Shown here one piece after another: positions 4,281-27,310 of a stretch of 27,310 nt of DNA (its first letter is position 1; every line of letters starts with the position of its first letter). The stretch lies in the IMG/VR virus record IMGVR_UViG_2778261168_000001, one strand, 5' to 3'. The stretch comes from a virus (Duplodnaviria; Heunggongvirae; Uroviricota; Caudoviricetes). The notes under the pieces are model-generated. The model worked only from the letters and a program-made list of their open reading frames with translations, was not told the DNA's origin and did not search any database. The position numbers and the translations under genes are program-made.

Positions 4281-5441
4281 TTATTCAACCTCTTCTAAAC
4301 TGCTCACTCTGGACCCTCGGCGGAAATTATCATCATTTTTAACATACTCGTATGAATCCAGAATCAAACCAGATATGCGAAGTATATCTTCCGGATTAGT
4401 TATATGTATCCTTTTACCATCCGTATCAAGTCGAGCTCGTCTTATTTCATTCAACTGAACTTCACTAAGCGAAATAGGTAAAGTTATAAATGAAGATTTT
4501 TTATCATAAAATCTTAACAGCCATCTATTAGTTTTACCATTCAATAGTACACCGAAATATGACTCAGTATCTTTATATTCTATATTATCTTCTGTTTGTA
4601 TGATTTGTTTTACCCTTTCAAATAGCTCCAATTCTTTGGCTGTGGTTATTATGTTGGGGTTTTCTTCATCAACAATGGCGTTATTAACTTGTGTATCCGT
4701 TGCATCATTTTCTTTAGTTTGCTCTACCGGTTGTGTAGATAGCCCGGAAACCACCATTGCGCTAACAGCGCGCTCAACGGCCTGTTTAACTAATGGAGTC
4801 ACGAACTCAAGAAATCTCTGATTAAGTTGTCTCTCAATATTTGAACGACTAGCAACATATCGAACAAACTCCAGATCAACTTCACGAAGACTAGAACTGA
4901 TTGTTTTAGTAAATGAATTCAAATAAACACTTTCTTCAGCCAGTGTCCGTAAAGCCTCTGGTTTGAATTTATCATAACGAAAACGAAATAATTGTGTAAT
5001 ATCGGAGTGAGTTAGAGAATCCATTCTTAATTTTAAAAACGGCGTTGAATCCATTATGTTTTTTTGTTTCAAATCCGTAAAAAAACGCCATTCAACACCA
5101 TTTGTAATGGCTGATATAGTAACTTCCGGTGTTGAATTAAAATATCTTGATAGCTGTGGGCAGTGATTATCAATTTGTTCTGAAAACGATTTCGCCTCAA
5201 TGAACATCACAGGAACATCATGACAAAATAAAGCGTAATCAACCCGTTCATTAGCCTTAACCCCGGGGAAGTCAGCACTATACTCAGCTTTGACTTTTCT
5301 TGGATCATACGGAGTAAAACCAAGAATATCTAGTAATGGCATAATGAGTGCTTGTTTTGTCGTTTCTTCAGTTGTACAAAACACCCCCATTTTTGCAACA
5401 TGCTCTGTGTGTATTTTTAACTTATTTGCAAAATTTTCCAT
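4281..5441 (-). CDS. Moron-encoded protein with N-terminal HsdR-N-like PD-(D/E)xK nuclease domain and a C-terminal domain of unknown function; candidate phage-exclusion protein
   Basis: Track ORF 4281..5456 (391 aa). ATG at 5441 (MENFANKL...) has a GGAGGAG RBS; the ATG at 5456 has none. N-terminus shows TEETTKQALIMPLLDILGF...ERVDYALF...PVMFIEAKSF...ITNGVEWRFF, the motif set of the type I restriction R-subunit N-terminal nuclease domain (compare EcoKI HsdR ...ADYVLF...VVEAK as recalled). Gene is conspicuously AT-rich by eye relative to flanking tail genes. Confidence 0.55.
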   Translation of the reverse strand: MENFANKLKIHTEHVAKMGVFCTTEETTKQALIMPLLDILGFTPYDPRKVKAEYSADFPGVKANERVDYALFCHDVPVMFIEAKSFSEQIDNHCPQLSRYFNSTPEVTISAITNGVEWRFFTDLKQKNIMDSTPFLKLRMDSLTHSDITQLFRFRYDKFKPEALRTLAEESVYLNSFTKTISSSLREVDLEFVRYVASRSNIERQLNQRFLEFVTPLVKQAVERAVSAMVVSGLSTQPVEQTKENDATDTQVNNAIVDEENPNIITTAKELELFERVKQIIQTEDNIEYKDTESYFGVLLNGKTNRWLLRFYDKKSSFITLPISLSEVQLNEIRRARLDTDGKRIHITNPEDILRISGLILDSYEYVKNDDNFRRGSRVSSLEEVE

Positions 5442-5469
5442 GCTTGTCTCCTCCATGGTTACAATCTGT

Positions 5470-5590: not shown

Positions 5591-5938
5591 TCATACCGGC
5601 ACCTGCGTCCGGTAACTGGTCCCATTAAAAAACACAACATCGATGTTATAGGTGGGGTTATCTGCTCCATCTACCTTTGAAATTGCCAATGATGCAAAAT
5701 AGCCGGCAAACTGTTGCTGAACCATGTTCACATAGTAGTCCGGGTAAATCTGCTGCACGATGCACTGCTGCGCAGGAATACCGTAATTCGCGTAAAACGG
5801 CGACTCCCCCAATCCCAGCTTTAACGTCTGAATGAGCGTCGTCAGCCAGCCGTAGGAGAAATCACCGTTGGCGTCAGATTCTACTGCAACCCATTTTTTG
5901 TTGCCGTTCGCGTCGGTGACGCGGCCCCATGTTCTCAT
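5591..5938 (-). CDS. Small baseplate protein, gp25/W-like by position and size (Mu gp46 slot)
   Basis: Track ORF 5591..5971 begins with TTG. ATG at 5938 (MRTWGRV...) has a GGTGAGGG RBS and sits 8 nt after the small upstream ORF stop. 115 aa between spike and J-like genes; family not verified from sequence. Confidence 0.35.
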   Translation of the reverse strand: MRTWGRVTDANGNKKWVAVESDANGDFSYGWLTTLIQTLKLGLGESPFYANYGIPAQQCIVQQIYPDYYVNMVQQQFAGYFASLAISKVDGADNPTYNIDVVFFNGTSYRTQVPV

Positions 5939-5945
5939 CGTGCCC

Positions 5946-6083
5946 TCACCACCATCGGATCTGGCCAACAAAATAACCAGACGCCAGAATCAGAAAGACC
6001 AACCAAATAAGCAAAAACTTCCAGGTGGATAATTTTTCAGCCATAACTCGAATCTCCCGAATCAGTTTGCTAAAATCAAACAC
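5946..6083 (-). CDS. Small hydrophobic single-pass membrane protein (45 aa from GTG, or 32 aa from the internal ATG at 6044)
   Basis: Not in the ORF track (below length cut-off). Minus strand reads AAGGAGAAGTC-GTG...: MFDFSKLIREIRVMAEKLSTWKFLLIWLVFLILASGYFVGQIRWW-stop. Strong SD, hydrophobic core, translationally coupled to the next gene. Confidence 0.35.
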   Translation of the reverse strand: MFDFSKLIREIRVMAEKLSTWKFLLIWLVFLILASGYFVGQIRWW

Positions 6084-6112
6084 GACTTCTCCTTGCCTTA
6101 TTCAAGGTCAGA

Positions 6113-6147
6113 AACAAAAAGCCCCGACTGCTGCAACAGTTCGGGGC
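6113..6147 (-). terminator. Rho-independent terminator on the minus strand, downstream of the spike gene
   Basis: Minus strand reads GCCCCGAACTGTTGCAGCAGTCGGGGC followed by TTTTTGTTTC: about 10-bp GC-rich stem with one bulge, then a T5 run. Confidence 0.5.
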
Positions 6148-6188
6148 TTTCGCTTTATGGATAGAATTTAAAGTGAAATAAACTGGTA

Positions 6189-6902
6189 TTAACCCGGATT
6201 TGGTTGCTTCGACGTGATCGTGCTGCCGCCGCTTTGAACGCCAGTCACATCGTGGCTGTGGCCGCTGGCGCTCACGCCGTTGATAATTGCATCCTTCTCG
6301 ACCTTAAGAGGACCAATCAGCGAAGCGGTTGTATCCTTCATCTGTGCTTCGTCTTGGACGATTGGACCGTTCAGGTGAATTTTCCCGTTCAGGAAAATAT
6401 CTTCAGCCTCGAGGTAAACAGCTTTCGACTTTTGCCTGATTTCTTCCGGAGCCACCGTTACCGAGCTACTGCCGTCCTCTGTTTTGAGGATCGCGCCATC
6501 CGGACCGTACAAAACGATTTTTTGCGGATCTTCGTCGGACCAGTCCTTGTTTGCCAGTGGCACGAAAAACAGTGGAGTGAGCGACATCGAGTAAGAGAGC
6601 GTCGCCATACCGGTTCCCAATCCGGACACTCCGCGCAGTGATACATCAGCGGCAATTGTTACTCCTCGATCGCCCGGCTGTATCGGGTAACGAATATACG
6701 GGAATGTGGCGACAGGGATTGTTATCTGCGGAAAGTTGATCCCCTCCGGCAGCATATCAAACTGAACTGTCACTATCTGCCCGCTGACATCGACAACATG
6801 GCAGGGCAATTCACGGCCTTTAAGCTCGGCTTGCTGGTTACCAGAACTGGTCATCATCTCTGACAGCGTTCGGAGAAACGGTATTTTTTGAGCGTTTGAC
6901 AT
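6189..6902 (-). CDS. Baseplate central spike protein (P2 gpV / Mu gp45-like)
   Basis: 237 aa; ATG at 6902 overlaps the upstream stop (TAATG). C-terminal Gly/Ser-rich tip contains an HSH motif (..SGHSHDVTGVQSGG..), as in iron-binding spike apex domains. Position after the hub-like gene. Confidence 0.5.
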   Translation of the reverse strand: MSNAQKIPFLRTLSEMMTSSGNQQAELKGRELPCHVVDVSGQIVTVQFDMLPEGINFPQITIPVATFPYIRYPIQPGDRGVTIAADVSLRGVSGLGTGMATLSYSMSLTPLFFVPLANKDWSDEDPQKIVLYGPDGAILKTEDGSSSVTVAPEEIRQKSKAVYLEAEDIFLNGKIHLNGPIVQDEAQMKDTTASLIGPLKVEKDAIINGVSASGHSHDVTGVQSGGSTITSKQPNPG

Positions 6903-23330: not shown

Positions 23331-23582
23331 TTAATCCTGATTTTTATCCACCCTGAGTAGTTCGCGCAGGGCAAAGGCATCCCCTTTTCTGGCAAGCTTA
23401 AACAATGCCGCTCGTAGCTCGGCTTCACCTTTCGCTCTGCCCTTACGGATGGACGCATAAAAATTTGTCATTGCTTCCCGATTTTCTTTCAGTCGGTTCA
23501 GATCAACATCCAGAACGTCAGCGATTTGTTGTGCAGTCATCCGGCACGCTGCCAGAGACTCGACTTTCGAATACGGAATCAT
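23331..23582 (-). CDS. Small HTH DNA-binding protein upstream of the packaging genes
   Basis: 83 aa; ATG at 23582 with GGGGGTGA RBS; stop is 3 nt before the next start. MTAQQIADVLDVDLNRLKEN is HTH-like. Confidence 0.4.
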   Translation of the reverse strand: MIPYSKVESLAACRMTAQQIADVLDVDLNRLKENREAMTNFYASIRKGRAKGEAELRAALFKLARKGDAFALRELLRVDKNQD

Positions 23583-24450
23583 TTGTCACCCCCATTGATA
23601 TGCAGGGTGTCTTCTTCCTGTATTTTTCGTGAATGATTTTTACTGCAGCGTTGTTCCAGGTGACCTGATGGTGAATGCGTTTATGGCTGGCGCCCATCAG
23701 GGATATTTTTACGCACGACGGCGCATACATGACGGAGTAAAAACTTTTAACGTAGGTTCCGGAATCCAGATACAGTTCGGTCATTCCGCCGCTGTTTTTC
23801 TGCGTCTGTTTCTGCCCTAACTGGACAGCACCAATCGTCATAAACAACTCACCACGGCGACCGAGATTCGTGTACGTATTCACATCCTCGTTAATGCGCC
23901 CCATGAATGAGAACGGTCGATCAACCGAACAGATAAAGCTGTTCATTGCCTTGCGTTTCACCCACGAAGCATGGCCGCCATTGTCACCAAGAAAATCCCC
24001 GCCCTGCGACATAGCGATGGAAAGAGCAGGTATTGATTCGTAGTACGCCAGCATTTCAGAAAGGATCGCATCCAGTTTCCTTATCGGAAAATAGGCCTGG
24101 TCATAGTTGCGATCCACCCGAAACTGGAACTCGTGATAATCATCATCGAGCTGAATGAAGTATTTACACCCGACCAGTTTTGCCAGGTCGAAACAGGCAT
24201 TACGGGCGTAAAAAATTGAGCGGCGGTCACAGAAATTATCGGCTTCGTCAAAACGACTGGCGATATCGGCTTTGGAAAACACCAGCACCTGTTCACCAAA
24301 TTCAGCCATGTATTGATGCCGTGTCTTATCTTCATCATCAACAACGATAAAAATTTTCCCGGTATAGCCAGCACGACGCAACGTCCGGTAAGTCAGAACT
24401 TTGTCCGGTCGCCCGTGAGTCAGAATAAAGGCGCAAAAATCATCACGCAT
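23518..24450 (-). CDS. Soluble GT-A-fold (family 2-like) nucleotide-sugar transferase-like protein
   Basis: Track start 24471; the ATG at 24450 (MRDDFCAF..) has a very strong GAGGAGGAGG RBS. N-terminus FILTHGRPDKVL...GKIFIVVDDED and a later FIQLDDDYHEF (DxD-type) motif match the GT-A N-terminal signature. No obvious transmembrane segments. Confidence 0.45.
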   Translation of the reverse strand: MRDDFCAFILTHGRPDKVLTYRTLRRAGYTGKIFIVVDDEDKTRHQYMAEFGEQVLVFSKADIASRFDEADNFCDRRSIFYARNACFDLAKLVGCKYFIQLDDDYHEFQFRVDRNYDQAYFPIRKLDAILSEMLAYYESIPALSIAMSQGGDFLGDNGGHASWVKRKAMNSFICSVDRPFSFMGRINEDVNTYTNLGRRGELFMTIGAVQLGQKQTQKNSGGMTELYLDSGTYVKSFYSVMYAPSCVKISLMGASHKRIHHQVTWNNAAVKIIHEKYRKKTPCISMGVTNDSVFESRVSGSVPDDCTTNR

Positions 24451-25234
24451 ATTCCTCCTCCTCACCACCATGCATGATCTCCACCATGCGCTGCGTCATC
24501 CGGACAAATCCATTTTCAATAGCCTGCTGATAATCAATGATCACCAGCGCCGACTCCTCGAAAAAACACTGAATTTCAGCGGGGGCGTGAGCGTAATAGT
24601 CCGCAATTCTGCTGAAATTAAACACCGTGTGACGTTCTGCCGCACACAAGAGGAACTTCTCAATATCAGGCTCAAGGGACGCCGAACGTATCCGGCTGAT
24701 CAACTCCTGAGTTTTCGTATCGTCGTACAGTTCACTGATATCTGGTTTATCGCCCGACGGCTCATAAACAGGCGTATCAATTTTCGTCGTGTACGGCTCC
24801 TCCTCATTTCCTGTACCGGGCAAAACATCCGTCAACAGTTCATCAATTTCTGTCGGGATGAAGCCTGTCAGGGAGACATCAAAATCAGCATTGATTAGGT
24901 CCGACAGCTCCATCCGCAACAGATCTTCATCCCAGCCAGCATTCATCGGCAGGCGATTATCTGCCAGGCGGTACGCCTTTTTCTGCTCATCCGTCAGGCC
25001 AGACAGAACAATGACCGGAACAGAATCCATTTTGAGCATTTCAGCCGCCATAACACGACCGTGACCCGCAATAATTTCGCCCTTTTCGTCAATCAGCACC
25101 GGATTAGTCCAGCCGAATTGCTTAATACTTTCTACCAGTTGTGCCACCTGCTCAGTACTGTGCGTCCTGGCGTTGTGCGCATACGGTGACAATTCTTGTA
25201 ATGGGCGATAGACTATCTTTAATTTCTCGCTCAT
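24443..25234 (-). CDS. ParB-like nuclease domain protein
   Basis: 263 aa; ATG at 25234. N-terminus YRPLQELSPYAHNARTHSTEQVAQLVESIKQFGWTNPVLIDEKGEIIAGHGR contains the ParB/sulfiredoxin-fold GxxR box (AGHGR). Overlaps the next gene start, so the two are co-operonic. Confidence 0.65.
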   Translation of the reverse strand: MSEKLKIVYRPLQELSPYAHNARTHSTEQVAQLVESIKQFGWTNPVLIDEKGEIIAGHGRVMAAEMLKMDSVPVIVLSGLTDEQKKAYRLADNRLPMNAGWDEDLLRMELSDLINADFDVSLTGFIPTEIDELLTDVLPGTGNEEEPYTTKIDTPVYEPSGDKPDISELYDDTKTQELISRIRSASLEPDIEKFLLCAAERHTVFNFSRIADYYAHAPAEIQCFFEESALVIIDYQQAIENGFVRMTQRMVEIMHGGEEEEYA

Positions 25235-25371: not shown

Positions 25372-26829
25372 TTAGGAGCGCCAAAAAAAACCTGAAAACA
25401 ATATAATAACAGGATAAATTTCAAGGCGACCAAGAATCATAGCTATGCACATTAAACATTTTGCAATGTCATTAAGCACTCCGAATGACGATGCAGTAGC
25501 CCCAAAACCTAATCCCATATTATTAATACATGCAGCCACTGTTGCAAATGATGTAAGAAAATCATATCCCATACCATTTAACACCAGTATAAAAAACACC
25601 GTGAAGAGAGTATAAAGAAAAAAGAAACTCCATACAGACCTCATTACACGATCTGTAACTATCTTCCCTCCTACATTTACACTCAACAACGCTCTGGGAT
25701 GAGAAAGCTGATTTATCTCGTGTTTGCTTTGTTTGAAAAGTATAAGAAATCGAAGTGACTTAATTCCACCACAAGTTGAACCTATACATCCCCCAAAGAA
25801 ACTTGACAACAGCAAAAACACTATCGTGTGCGTGGGCCAACTTGCATAATCCTGCGTAGCTAAACCATTATCAGTGAGCATGGAGCTGGCAAGAAAAAAC
25901 GAATGAATAAAACTTCCATGCAAGTCATACATACCTATATGCCAGACCTGGAAAGAGGTAACAATGATCACCCCTAAGGCTATTAACAGAAAGAAACGAA
26001 GTTCAATATCTCTGATTAAAGGTTTTATCGTTTTCCTGCTAATAACAATATACCAAAGAGTGAAGTTGAAAGCCGATAGCAGGGAAAAAGAACCAGCCAC
26101 CAGCTCAACCAAATAGTTATTAAAATATCCGATACTCTCGCTATGAGTTGAGAAACCACCAAGCGAAACTGTGGAAATCCCGTGACAAATAGCATCAAAC
26201 AAAGGCATTCCTGCAAGTCTATAACAGACAATACAAGCAATACCTAATAAAGAATAAGTTATCCACAGTGTCCGTGACGTATCGGCCAGGCGGGGAGTGA
26301 GTTTGTCATCCTTAAATGGCCCCGGCATTTCTGACTGATAAAGCTTTGCACCACCAATACCCAATAATGGCAATACAGCAACCGCCAGAACAATAACTCC
26401 TAAACCACCTATAAAATTTAACTGTGACCGATAGTACAAATATGCCCGAGGTAATGAACTAACATCATCAATTACAGTTGCTCCTGTTGTTGTTATTCCA
26501 GAAACCCCTTCAAACAGAGCATCAATGAACGTTAAATTAAGTTCTGAGTCAATCCATAAAGGGAATGCACTAATAACAGAAAACAAAATCCAAAACATTA
26601 CAATTATAATAAACCCATCACGGGTACGTAATTGAATGCCAGATTTCTTAGTTGTATACCACGCTCCGCCACCAATGCAAAAAAATATAACGAAAGTTAT
26701 AAAGAAAACGAACAGGCTTTTTTCTTTATAAAACAATGCTACAACCATTGGTGGCAACATTGAAAGACTATAGAGCCAAACCAGGAACCCACACATATGA
26801 GTAACAACTCTTACATGAGATGTATTCAT
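25372..26829 (-). CDS. trkG: TrkG/TrkH-family potassium uptake transporter (prophage cargo)
   Basis: 485 aa from ATG at 26829 (MNTSHVRVV..); the track's 491-aa version starts at TTG 26847, which has an AAGGTGG SD. Multiple membrane helices with the reiterated glycine-containing pore motifs of TrkH/KtrB (FCIGGGAWY, TTGATV, NFIGGLGV, STVSLGGFS, GGCIGSTCGG, INNMGLGFGAT). Gene is visibly AT-rich. Rz/Rz1-trkG is the Rac prophage arrangement as I recall it. Confidence 0.85.
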   Translation of the reverse strand: MNTSHVRVVTHMCGFLVWLYSLSMLPPMVVALFYKEKSLFVFFITFVIFFCIGGGAWYTTKKSGIQLRTRDGFIIIVMFWILFSVISAFPLWIDSELNLTFIDALFEGVSGITTTGATVIDDVSSLPRAYLYYRSQLNFIGGLGVIVLAVAVLPLLGIGGAKLYQSEMPGPFKDDKLTPRLADTSRTLWITYSLLGIACIVCYRLAGMPLFDAICHGISTVSLGGFSTHSESIGYFNNYLVELVAGSFSLLSAFNFTLWYIVISRKTIKPLIRDIELRFFLLIALGVIIVTSFQVWHIGMYDLHGSFIHSFFLASSMLTDNGLATQDYASWPTHTIVFLLLSSFFGGCIGSTCGGIKSLRFLILFKQSKHEINQLSHPRALLSVNVGGKIVTDRVMRSVWSFFFLYTLFTVFFILVLNGMGYDFLTSFATVAACINNMGLGFGATASSFGVLNDIAKCLMCIAMILGRLEIYPVIILFSGFFWRS

Positions 26830-26846
26830 ATCTAAATATTCTTTCA

Positions 26847-26900
26847 ATTATAACCACCTTGCTGCAATATTATGATTATACTGTATAAAATTTAACTCCT
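26847..26900 (-). promoter_or_regulatory. AT-rich upstream region of trkG with two perfect TATAAT hexamers (candidate promoter)
   Basis: Minus-strand TATAAT at 26880..26875 and 26852..26847; no convincing -35 found. Confidence 0.25.
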
Positions 26901-26966
26901 CTTAGATCTTACTTCACTGTTCCTTATGAAACAATCATCAAAATGAATCATATTGTAGTTAAGATT

Positions 26967-27263
26967 TTACTTTAAACACTGCTCGGTTATGTATTGCTGA
27001 GCACCTTCAAGTTGGGCCTGCATCATTACCAGTCGTTCCCGGAGGGTGAAATAATCCCGTTCAGCGGTGTCTGCCAGTCGGGGGGAGGCTGCATTATCCA
27101 CGCCGGAGGCGGTGGTGGCTTCACGCACTGACTGACAGACTGCTTTGATGTGCAACCGACGACGACCAGCGGCAACATCATCACGCAGAGCATCATTTTC
27201 AGCTTTCGCATCAGCTAACTCCTTCGTGTATTTTGATCCTACCCACGTAATATGGACACAGGC
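26967..27263 (-). pseudogene. rzpR: Rz-like i-spanin gene fragment (C-terminal part only; N-terminal membrane anchor missing)
   Basis: Translation ...KYTKELADAKAENDALRDDVAAGRRRLHIKAVCQSVREATTASGVDNAASPRLADTAERDYFTLRERLVMMQAQLEGAQQYITEQC matches the lambda Rz C-terminal two-thirds as recalled. The frame hits an in-frame TAG at 27266..27264, and the residues upstream of KYTKEL diverge from Rz. Confidence 0.55.
27026..27211 (-). CDS. rzoR: Rz1-like o-spanin outer-membrane lipoprotein
   Basis: 61 aa, ATG at 27211: MRKLKMMLCVMMLPLVVVGCTSKQ... with lipobox LVVVGC and a proline-rich segment (KPPPPPAWIMQPPPDWQTP), embedded in the +1 frame of the Rz-like ORF. Near-identical to lambda Rz1 as recalled. 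Confidence 0.8.
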   Translation of the reverse strand: MRKLKMMLCVMMLPLVVVGCTSKQSVSQCVKPPPPPAWIMQPPPDWQTPLNGIISPSGNDW

Positions 27264-27310
27264 CTAAGCGAGGTTCTTGTTTTCAAATTGTTCCGGACTG
27301 AGGCCGCCAC

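Follow-up and report, generated by a model that had tools for sequence, protein, structure and literature searches.

The 27,310-nucleotide viral sequence IMGVR_UViG_2778261168_000001 (Duplodnaviria; Heunggongvirae; Uroviricota; Caudoviricetes), the whole of which is called the window here, carries between its spike gene and its W-like baseplate gene a GTG-initiated open reading frame (ORF) of 45 codons that belongs to the protein family phrog_6632 and is preceded by a hairpin of the intrinsic-terminator type. We analysed this ORF, the hairpin and their relatives in other genomes. Coordinates are window positions unless another locus is named, and the ORF, the hairpin and the neighbouring genes are read on the minus strand.

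All genes of the window lie on the minus strand. Together they make up the late region of a lambdoid prophage that is Rac-like and has a contractile-tail module, comprising terminase, head and tail genes, a 692-aa tape-measure-sized protein (its counterpart in phage Rac-SA53 is annotated as lytic transglycosylase), and baseplate hub, spike, W-like, baseplate J and tail fibre genes. After the stop of the spike gene, the order on the minus strand is the A-rich tract AUAAAGCGAAA, a stem-loop, a U-run, a 5' untranslated region (5'UTR) with a Shine-Dalgarno sequence (SD), the GTG-initiated ORF, 7 nt and the ATG of the W-like gene. The spike or baseplate-V-like gene (6189..6902, minus strand, 237 aa; weak match to TIGR01644, phage_P2_V; bppV in Rac-SA53) stops 41 nt before the hairpin. 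The A-rich tract (6148..6158, minus strand) is located directly 5' of the hairpin, pairs with the U-run and reads on the opposite strand as the U-tract UUUCGCUUUAU. The GC-rich stem-loop (6121..6147, minus strand; G6147..C6121, GCCCCGA[A]CUGU-UGCA-GCAGUCGGGGC) is followed directly at its 3' side by the U-run UUUUUGUUU (6112..6120, minus strand). The 5'UTR (6084..6111, minus strand) leaves 28 nt from the U-run to the start codon and contains the SD AAGGAG (6094-6089), with a spacer of 5 nt between SD and GTG.

The ORF itself (MFDFSKLIREIRVMAEKLSTWKFLLIWLVFLILASGYFVGQIRWW; 5946..6083, minus strand) runs from GTG at 6083-6081 to TGA at 5948-5946, and its product ends in ...GQIRWW. Inside it, an SD-like GGGAG (6054-6058), a 9-nt spacer and the ATG of Met14 (6042-6044) form a possible start for a 32-aa product (6042..6058, minus strand). 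The W-like baseplate gene (5591..5938, minus strand, 115 aa, phrog_7986; ATG at 5938-5936) takes its SD from UGGUGGUGAGGG at the end of the small ORF. The strong SD, the GTG-initiated 45-codon ORF, the internal ATG giving 32 codons and the C-terminal WW named in a preliminary description of this DNA were all confirmed on the sequence, and the spacing of 8 given there between stop codon and W-like gene is the same junction (7 nt lie between stop and ATG, and the A of ATG is the 8th position after the final base of the stop).

A conserved gene for a small membrane peptide

The ORF is a genuine gene under purifying selection. Its translation matched the PHROG hidden Markov model of phrog_6632, a family of unknown function, over the full length (E = 2.1e-28, residues 1-45 on profile positions 1-45 of 45), and the Salmonella and Azoarcus homologues matched the same profile. 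A protein search retrieved 32 homologues. With loci found via alignments, the protein and locus searches together gave about 250 loci, which encode some 20 different versions of the peptide. Their sources are Escherichia, Salmonella, Yersinia, Pantoea, Brenneria and Symbiopectobacterium, besides a single Azoarcus metagenome-assembled genome. Every variant retains the reading frame, Met14, an EK(L)xxWKF motif and a hydrophobic C-terminal half, and starts with a GTG or TTG that follows a strong SD. The ratio of non-synonymous to synonymous substitution rates (dN/dS, Nei-Gojobori) against the window-type sequence was 0.06-0.19, except for one Pantoea-type comparison with a dN/dS of 0.38, in which dS was near saturation. 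Between the members of the closest pairs, 6-9 changes were synonymous and none was non-synonymous.

That there is no gene here, and that the ORF arose by chance behind an ordinary terminator within the operon, could be argued from the short length, the GTG start and the omission of the ORF by the annotation pipeline PGAP. The full-length PHROG match, the selection seen in the closest pairs and a frame kept over six genera and at least five genomic contexts exclude this, and the reading is effectively refuted, with a negligible probability. The earlier claim of a real small gene was thus borne out, as was the conservation check proposed with it, the frame being kept in about 20 variants and dN/dS being low. 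An ORF on the plus strand (6025-6171) was also considered; it spans the hairpin, which bears indels between close relatives, and was rejected.

The preliminary description had called the gene unannotated, which is correct in part. PGAP leaves the gap empty in the closest RefSeq genome, but the same ORF is rac58 of phage Rac-SA53, whose DNA is 98% identical here, and the identical peptide has been deposited at NCBI many times as 'hypothetical protein'. A full-text literature search for the peptide or the PHROG identifier found nothing; the gene is already catalogued and uncharacterised, with no paper on it in the literature searched.

The peptide is strongly hydrophobic over residues 24-42 (Kyte-Doolittle 19-residue mean of 2.16), where both the Kyte-Doolittle profile and AlphaFold predict a single transmembrane helix (LLIWLVFLILASGYFVGQI, codons 24-42; 5958..6014, minus strand), in agreement with the single-helix membrane peptide proposed earlier. 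The N-terminal 23 residues carry 5 basic and 3 acidic side chains and are amphipathic (hydrophobic moment muH 0.49), and past the hydrophobic stretch only RWW follows. With an alignment of 10 sequences, AlphaFold placed helices at residues 4-17 and 20-44 (mean predicted local distance difference test score of about 82) with a break at residues 18-19, which are Ser-Thr in the window peptide and Pro-Asn in other clades. The predicted architecture is an amphipathic cytoplasmic helix and then one C-terminal transmembrane helix, and by the positive-inside rule the product would be an N-in, tail-anchored inner-membrane peptide.

Two products, of 45 aa and 32 aa, are likely to be made. Met14 is encoded by ATG in 37 of 37 unique ORFs, the purine-rich SD-like motif before it survives amino-acid changes (CGGGAG, ATGGAG, CAGGGG, AAGGAA), and the 32-aa form is called by several annotators. 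The long form is probably translated as well, because the N-terminal extension is conserved as protein in divergent copies (IDFSKLIRELRVM, IDLPEKLIKELREM, VNFIKSLKELMGM).

The terminator hairpin and the opposite strand

The 91-nt hairpin region folded at -26.4 kcal/mol (z = -3.97), and 0 of 200 shuffled sequences were as stable. The stem is highly variable even among near-identical prophages, yet remains paired; with RNAalifold, compensatory double changes were found in 10 of the 24 predicted pairs among 21 variants. The fold on the ORF strand was better than that on the opposite strand in 58 of 62 upstream variants, through G.U pairs (mean -19.7 versus -16.5 kcal/mol; Stx type -20.5 versus -13.6 kcal/mol, the opposite-strand Stx-type hairpin having a large loop). 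Since the ORF-strand fold is favoured and compensatory changes occur, the structure is selected at least on the ORF strand. The A-tract is kept in all contexts as ATAAAGCGAAAG, ATAAAAGTAAAAA or AATAAAACGAAAG, the U-run is well kept among the copies from Enterobacterales and poor in that from Azoarcus, and the hairpin precedes the ORF in every context except a copy disrupted by an IS66 element and the second of two tandem copies. The stem-loop followed by its U-run, with the strong fold and the compensatory changes, upheld the terminator reported upstream of the ORF. It has the make-up of an intrinsic (Rho-independent) type terminator, and is predicted to stop RNA polymerase and to be read through under the antiterminator Q. 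A simple terminator scan did not call the hairpin of the window but called the equivalent hairpin in relatives lacking the bulge (loci L260 and L258), and the missed call is attributed to the bulged A in the stem.

The two exceptional copies are as follows. In locus L022 (about 750-2380), an IS66-family transposase element lies between the hairpin position and the SD; the terminator is gone and the ORF is intact. In loci L116-L118 (2420-2892), the small ORF occurs twice in tandem between spike and W; the two copies have diverged, and the second is without the hairpin and has its N-terminus replaced (MKFLFIVYKLLVEIRVM...).

Other RNA structures were considered near the start codon. CCUUG (6103-6107) is able to pair with CAAGG (6091-6095), overlapping the SD; as a conserved SD-occluding mini-hairpin this candidate was rejected, since it folds at -5.2 kcal/mol (z -0.2), no better than shuffles, and is out of register with the Stx-type and Pantoea-type UTRs. 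Other UTR versions show different weak pairings beside the SD. A stem between the start codon and codons 10-12, proposed by RNAalifold, has only invariant or G.U pairs and one clade-level double change and was judged unconvincing. A search of the whole window against Rfam gave nothing above gathering threshold. The sub-threshold hits (sar, ohsC, ctRNA and the rimP leader) are driven by the terminator stem and count as no more than a lead; the similarity to P22 sar covers 6118-6150 (minus strand) and 6087-6154 (plus strand) at 21.9 and 19.1 bits against a gathering score of 43. The hairpin AAAGCCCCGaACUGUUGCAGCAGUCGGGGCUUU is close in sequence to the sar terminator stem-loop, a likeness that could reflect chance or shared ancestry of immI-type control regions.

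The 5' half of the ORF is constrained beyond its protein sequence. In several Escherichia/Yersinia comparisons, codons 2-23 had 0-2 synonymous differences per about 13 sites versus 5-10 per about 15 sites in codons 24-45. Among the 37 unique ORFs, codons 3-5, 9, 10 and 12 never varied synonymously, including the rare codons CGG9 and CGA12, and Arg43 uses four codons. This synonymous freeze is partly explained by the internal ribosome-binding site; the leftover constraint at codons 3-7 coincides with an extended -10 element, TGcTAAAAT, on the opposite strand. A hypothetical antisense promoter can be drawn there on the plus strand (6048..6076), with TCGAAT at 6048-6053, a 17-nt spacer and TGcTAAAAT at 6068-6076, from sequence only.

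These features raise a second explanation, in which the product would be a membrane-toxic peptide repressed by a cis-antisense RNA of about 75 nt in the manner of type I toxin-antitoxin (TA) systems or of P22 sar/ant, with late transcription outrunning the repressor. The promoter in codons 3-12 (plus strand, 6048-6076) would fire toward the hairpin, which would serve as a bidirectional terminator, and the predicted RNA would start at about 6083 (the complement of GTG), end at about 6156 and be fully complementary to SD and GTG. Besides the near-frozen synonymous sites in codons 2-23 and the invariant rare CGG9 and CGA12, several observations are consistent with such an RNA. The -10 motif, ATTTTAnCA on the ORF strand, is present in all copies with a conserved 5' coding end; it is exact in the Azoarcus copy (TGATAAAAT) despite a change of DFSK to NFIK, and Salmonella phage SPN3UB carries the variant TGCTAATAT. 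The second tandem copy in L116-118 lacks the motif. The conserved A-tract is a U-tract on the other strand, the Azoarcus copy has a good U-run and a more stable stem on the opposite strand only, and for the predicted RNA of 76 nt the folding energy is -26 kcal/mol (z -4.2). An unrelated ORF family (phage PhiR5_2, phrog_1115/4493) is preceded by the same hairpin and UTR, and in 650 bp of PhiR5_2 the only promoter-like site is antisense (TAGTCA-18-TATACT), with its start at the start codon of that ORF. Tandem copies, as in L116-118, also occur with many type I toxins.

An antisense-oriented small RNA inside a lambdoid tail operon has a precedent in PasB, an Hfq-bound RNA of prophage PP6 of enteropathogenic E. 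coli that lies between gpI and gpJ antisense to the operon (PMC8550237; bioRxiv 10.64898/2026.05.13.724894). PasB resembles the present element as a small element in a gap of a lambdoid tail operon; it differs in sequence and in its antisense orientation, and is not the same element.

The antisense RNA is however a prediction from the letters of the locus. Its -35 element is weak (3 of 6 positions) and its promoter was not called by the promoter scan; the G.U pairs favour the ORF strand in the 58 of 62 hairpin variants, and the Stx-type opposite strand forms the weak, large-looped fold noted above. The synonymous constraint can also be explained by the internal SD and ATG and by the needs of a translation-initiation region, one promoter-like site per 650 bp is the level of shuffled sequence (0.7 expected), and no Rfam family passed its threshold (sar at 19-22 bits against 43, mostly from the terminator stem). 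Compared with known type I TA and antisense-controlled systems (hok/sok, symE/SymR, zorO/orzO, sar/ant), the gene is alike in its small hydrophobic peptide, its guarded start, a possible antisense promoter and a bidirectional-looking terminator, and a 45-aa peptide with a single transmembrane domain (TMD) fits a small hydrophobic toxin, its toxicity being a prediction. It is unlike them in that it is sense in a late operon, has no toxin promoter that could be found and has no match to an Rfam or protein family; a toxin without its own promoter departs from the classical type I systems. On this balance we consider antisense control unlikely. Its fullest form, a phage-borne cis-antisense-controlled membrane toxin in which the RNA would silence the lysogen and early infection and late read-through would override it as a timer of a lysis peptide, the module being shared by at least two small-ORF families (phrog_6632 and phrog_1115/4493), is a speculation that we regard as unlikely to be correct.

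A mobile cassette in late operons

The hairpin, the 5'UTR and the ORF move as one cassette of about 200 bp. Compared with Stx1a-, Stx2a- and Stx2c-converting phages, H-19B and CP-1639, the window DNA matches only at 5946-6138, with 84% identity, and the homology begins inside the terminator stem and stops exactly at the last base of the stop codon. A Stx-type copy was present in 885 of 5426 complete E. coli genomes (about 16%; query at least 80% covered).

The commonest site (about 160 loci) lies in Stx-type lysis cassettes in the order endolysin, cassette, Rz/Rz1, with the Rz ATG one base after the stop. The order endolysin, cassette and Rz-like spanin was found in three non-homologous lysis cassettes, namely the Stx type, that of locus L120 (holins phrog_198 and phrog_217, GH19-type endolysin phrog_181, the cassette, and spanin phrog_1026 with an embedded lipoprotein ORF) and that of locus L121 (holin/antiholin phrog_126, endolysin phrog_873, the cassette, and spanin phrog_214 with an embedded Rz1-like ORF). 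In phage SPN3UB the cassette also lies between endolysin and Rz, where it is unannotated. In the Stx-type cassettes bearing the gene the endolysin has a hydrophobic N-terminus, which looks like that of signal-arrest-release endolysins; the gene also occurs with endolysins that have no hydrophobic N-terminal segment.

The baseplate site of the window, between the 237-aa spike and the 115-aa W-like gene, is shared by about 40 similar loci. In about 30 Pantoea-type loci the cassette lies between a 246-aa spike and an unrelated-looking 117-aa W gene. Further sites are after lambda gpI-like and lipoprotein genes, after a 965-aa protein at an operon end and, in the Azoarcus contig, between the genes for an internal virion protein and for a lytic internal protein of 772 aa. 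The location given in the preliminary description, inside the tail operon, holds in that the gene lies within the tail/baseplate operon and tight to the W-like gene; the gene is not tail-specific, being an inserted mobile cassette whose main home is beside the endolysin and an Rz-type spanin.

In relatives with a homologous W (Yersinia vB_YenM_29.18, Klebsiella Chronis and Shewanella vB_Sb_QDWS), spike, W and J overlap or lie 12 nt apart, and the spike and W genes in these three phages overlap by 4 nt or leave a 12-nt gap. Since spike, W and J abut in relatives, both the cassette and an HsdR_N endonuclease gene are insertions in the window. The latter (4281-5456, minus strand) encodes a 391-aa protein with N-terminal domains of HsdR of type I restriction systems (PF04313, PF13588; phrog_4225 'endonuclease'). 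It separates the W-like gene from baseplate J, two genes that overlap in related phages; its GC content is 0.31-0.40 where the surrounding DNA has about 0.50, and there is a promoter-like site at 5499->5470. In Rac-SA53 this site is occupied, on the opposite strand, by an antirepressor and two further ORFs. The HsdR_N gene is a second moron and a possible defence gene; it had no PADLOC hit.

In most co-directional contexts the stop of the small ORF lies 1, 3, 7, 14 or 16-22 nt from the next start. This close coupling is also what would be expected of a leader ORF whose peptide has no role, the cassette merely restarting translation after the hairpin and giving an SD (UGGUGGUGA) to the next gene. 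Shortly before the start of Rz or W, the codons for RWW create an SD-like GGUGGUGA, and an ...IRWW-stop junction also occurs in an unrelated small ORF of phage GER2. Purifying selection, however, acts over the whole peptide, the segment for the transmembrane helix being rich in synonymous changes with conservative replacements (dN/dS 0.06-0.19). Related phages have W straight after the spike without such an ORF, and in Brenneria and Symbiopectobacterium the cassette ends the operon with no co-directional gene downstream. A pure coupling function is thus improbable in our view.

The endolysin/Rz junction holds other families of tiny ORFs with a single TMD. The family phrog_1115/4493, which has the same terminator hairpin and 5'UTR as phrog_6632, is represented in PhiR5_2 (L260, 2073-2401) by a 60-aa ORF with an internal Met13 behind an SD, and in GER2 (L259, 2137-2250) by a 37-aa ORF ending in ...AIRWW just before Rz. 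The family phrog_4906 (43-48 aa) follows an ant gene, as in Sakai Sp5 (ECs_5707; L253, 9383-9529). Tiny membrane ORFs of at least three unrelated families (phrog_6632, phrog_1115/4493 and phrog_4906), mostly skipped by annotation pipelines, thus make the junction of endolysin and i-spanin genes a hotspot, and a control module with the terminator first is common to two of the three.

Expression and a possible role in lysis

A promoter scan revealed no promoter-like site upstream of the ORF on its strand. The 28-30 nt between the U-run and GTG cannot hold a promoter. Because copies in different contexts become homologous only from within the terminator stem onward, they have no sequence in common before the A-tract, and a conserved promoter cannot lie there. 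The separate regulation suggested in the preliminary description was therefore not supported. In Rac-SA53 the Q gene is followed by co-directional late genes, and the same layout is found in E. coli 214-4, an intact relative; Stx phages belong to the classical lambdoids that depend on Q. Because the late genes lie downstream of the Q antiterminator, the simplest reading is that the terminator gates expression to antiterminated late transcription, and we infer that the gene is expressed only late.

We class the gene as a late-operon accessory membrane-protein cassette. Our preferred reading, held tentatively and judged to fall a little short of probable, is that it encodes a terminator-gated late, antitermination-dependent lysis-accessory membrane peptide, which has been moved as a cassette into the baseplate operon. 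Unmodified polymerase would stop at the terminator, so that no peptide would be made in the lysogen. Q-modified late transcription would pass the terminator, and the peptide would be translated within the operon, its last codons UGGUGGUGA doubling as the SD region for the next gene. Late in infection it would enter the inner membrane as a non-essential lysis accessory, where it might tune the timing of lysis via its two isoforms in a holin/antiholin-like manner, or perturb the membrane. That unrelated lysis cassettes have acquired it repeatedly, and each time at precisely the endolysin/i-spanin junction, suggests that the peptide acts at the inner membrane in the course of lysis, as far as gene order can indicate it. 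The terminator in front, the weak start codon and the tight late-only coupling fit a product that is harmful if mistimed; an arrangement with the terminator first, the gene second and no promoter would be an easy means of making a harmful gene depend on antiterminated late transcription.

The roles suggested earlier for the peptide were toxin, membrane-targeted exclusion factor or holin-like protein, of which the context favours a lysis-associated, holin-like or toxin-like role and speaks against an exclusion factor expressed in the lysogen. In the latter explanation, the gene would be a lysogen-expressed moron acting in superinfection exclusion at the inner membrane, in the style of HK97 gp15 or T4 Imm, and its site in the tail operon would be incidental. 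Small inner-membrane proteins encoded in tail operons can be exclusion factors, as HK97 gp15 is. The gene is inserted between genes that abut in relatives, lies near a second clear moron (the HsdR_N endonuclease gene) and is widespread in E. coli prophages. On the other side, no promoter-like site was found from the 3' end of the spike gene to the ORF, the gap of only 28-30 nt between terminator and start leaves little room for one, and the conserved terminator is on the wrong side, where it would block read-in transcription. The GTG or TTG start is weak, the recurrent placement between endolysin and spanin is unexpected for an exclusion gene, and no PADLOC hit was obtained. We regard an exclusion moron as rather unlikely. 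Compared with morons in general (HK97 gp15, lambda bor and lom), the cassette is alike as an accessory insertion between late genes adjacent in relatives, in its horizontal movement and in its boundaries at gene ends; a classical moron is active in the lysogen from a promoter of its own that precedes it and has a terminator behind it, whereas the present terminator stands before the gene, a promoter could not be found and the next gene follows after 7 nt. The cassette is moron-like as an insertion and falls outside the definition by promoter and terminator.

Several points weigh against the preferred lysis-accessory reading. The lysis role is read from gene neighbourhood, which is its sole basis. 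No expression evidence was found in the literature, nor was the peptide present in the small-gene supplements of Sakai Ribo-seq. Pfam and NCBIfam gave no hits, there is no homology to holins, antiholins, releasins or spanins, and the PHROG is not in the lysis category; PADLOC returned 0 families at E <= 1, so no known defence protein model matched either. The cassette also occupies sites away from lysis genes (baseplate operons at about 70 loci, and beside gpI-like genes, the 965-aa protein and podovirus internal virion proteins), and its positions may merely mark tolerated insertion points in late operons. It is dispensable, since other phages have nothing or other small ORFs at the site: Sakai Sp5 and Sp15 carry ant and a different 48-aa ORF instead of the cassette at the endolysin/Rz site, and in E2348/69 PP2 the cassette is missing from the interval between lysozyme and Rz. 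Late expression for lysis accounts only in part for the near-freeze of synonymous sites in codons 2-23. Finally, the prophage copy in the window may have lost Q, holin and endolysin, and its operon is perhaps silent.

The end of the window bears a TrkH-family (trkG-like) gene (25372-27310, minus strand) preceded by an Rz without its N-terminus, in which the embedded Rz1 lipoprotein ORF is intact. This layout of truncated Rz, Rz1 and trkG is that of the defective Rac prophage of K-12 (rzpR'/rzoR-trkG). In its place, the prophage of the intact relative in E. coli 214-4 encodes DUF1133 (Q-like), tRNAs, holins and an M15 endolysin, with a 60-codon hypothetical ORF (L262, 3374-3556) directly after the M15 endolysin.

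Among known lysis proteins, dual-start holin/antiholin pairs (lambda S105/S107, phage 21 S68/S71) are alike in being small inner-membrane proteins beside the endolysin with two in-frame starts and a basic extension. The starts of the phrog_6632 gene are 13 codons apart, not 1-3; its product has one TMD and virtually no hydrophilic C-terminal tail, and no similarity to a holin family. Of the features of holins, a TMD is predicted, a position in the lysis cassette is found in relatives and not in the window, and the hydrophilic charged C-terminal domain is absent. The lysis cassettes bearing phrog_6632 already have their own holin or holins. LysA of phage P2 is a non-essential membrane protein of about 141 aa with several TMDs, encoded between the endolysin K and the spanin genes lysB/lysC, and affects lysis timing. 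The two are alike in position (endolysin, X, i-spanin), as membrane proteins and in being dispensable, and unlike in that they share no homology and LysA is larger. The releasin gp25 of phage Mu (DUF2730) has 99 aa, an N-out/C-in topology and a 73-aa anionic cytoplasmic domain (PMC9239132). It is likewise small, tethered to the membrane, for the most part cytoplasmic and encoded near the endolysin, but phrog_6632 is not a releasin of the Mu type, having 45 aa, a predicted N-in topology and no DUF2730/PF10805 hit.

If the preferred lysis-accessory reading holds, about one sixth of sequenced E. coli and many Stx1, Stx2a and Stx2c phages would carry an uncharacterised fourth or fifth component of the lysis cassette, a tail-anchored peptide of 45/32 aa encoded exactly between the endolysin and spanin genes. 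Lysis timing affects phage yield and toxin release in Stx phages, so a modulator of timing would be of practical interest there.

Two observations concern toxin genes and DNA modification in this prophage family. In Rac-SA53 (L261, 20466-24628), genes for a pertussis-like toxin (eplBA) and heat-labile enterotoxin IIa flank the holin/endolysin genes. Because this closest sequenced phage carries them, the family of the window is a lineage of toxin-converting prophages; the window itself showed none of these toxin genes. At 23518-25234 (minus strand) of the window, two overlapping genes, one for a TET-associated glycosyltransferase (PF20691, E = 4e-36) and the other with a ParB_N domain, lie immediately upstream of the gene for the small terminase subunit, and the pair may represent a DNA-modification module in the late operon.

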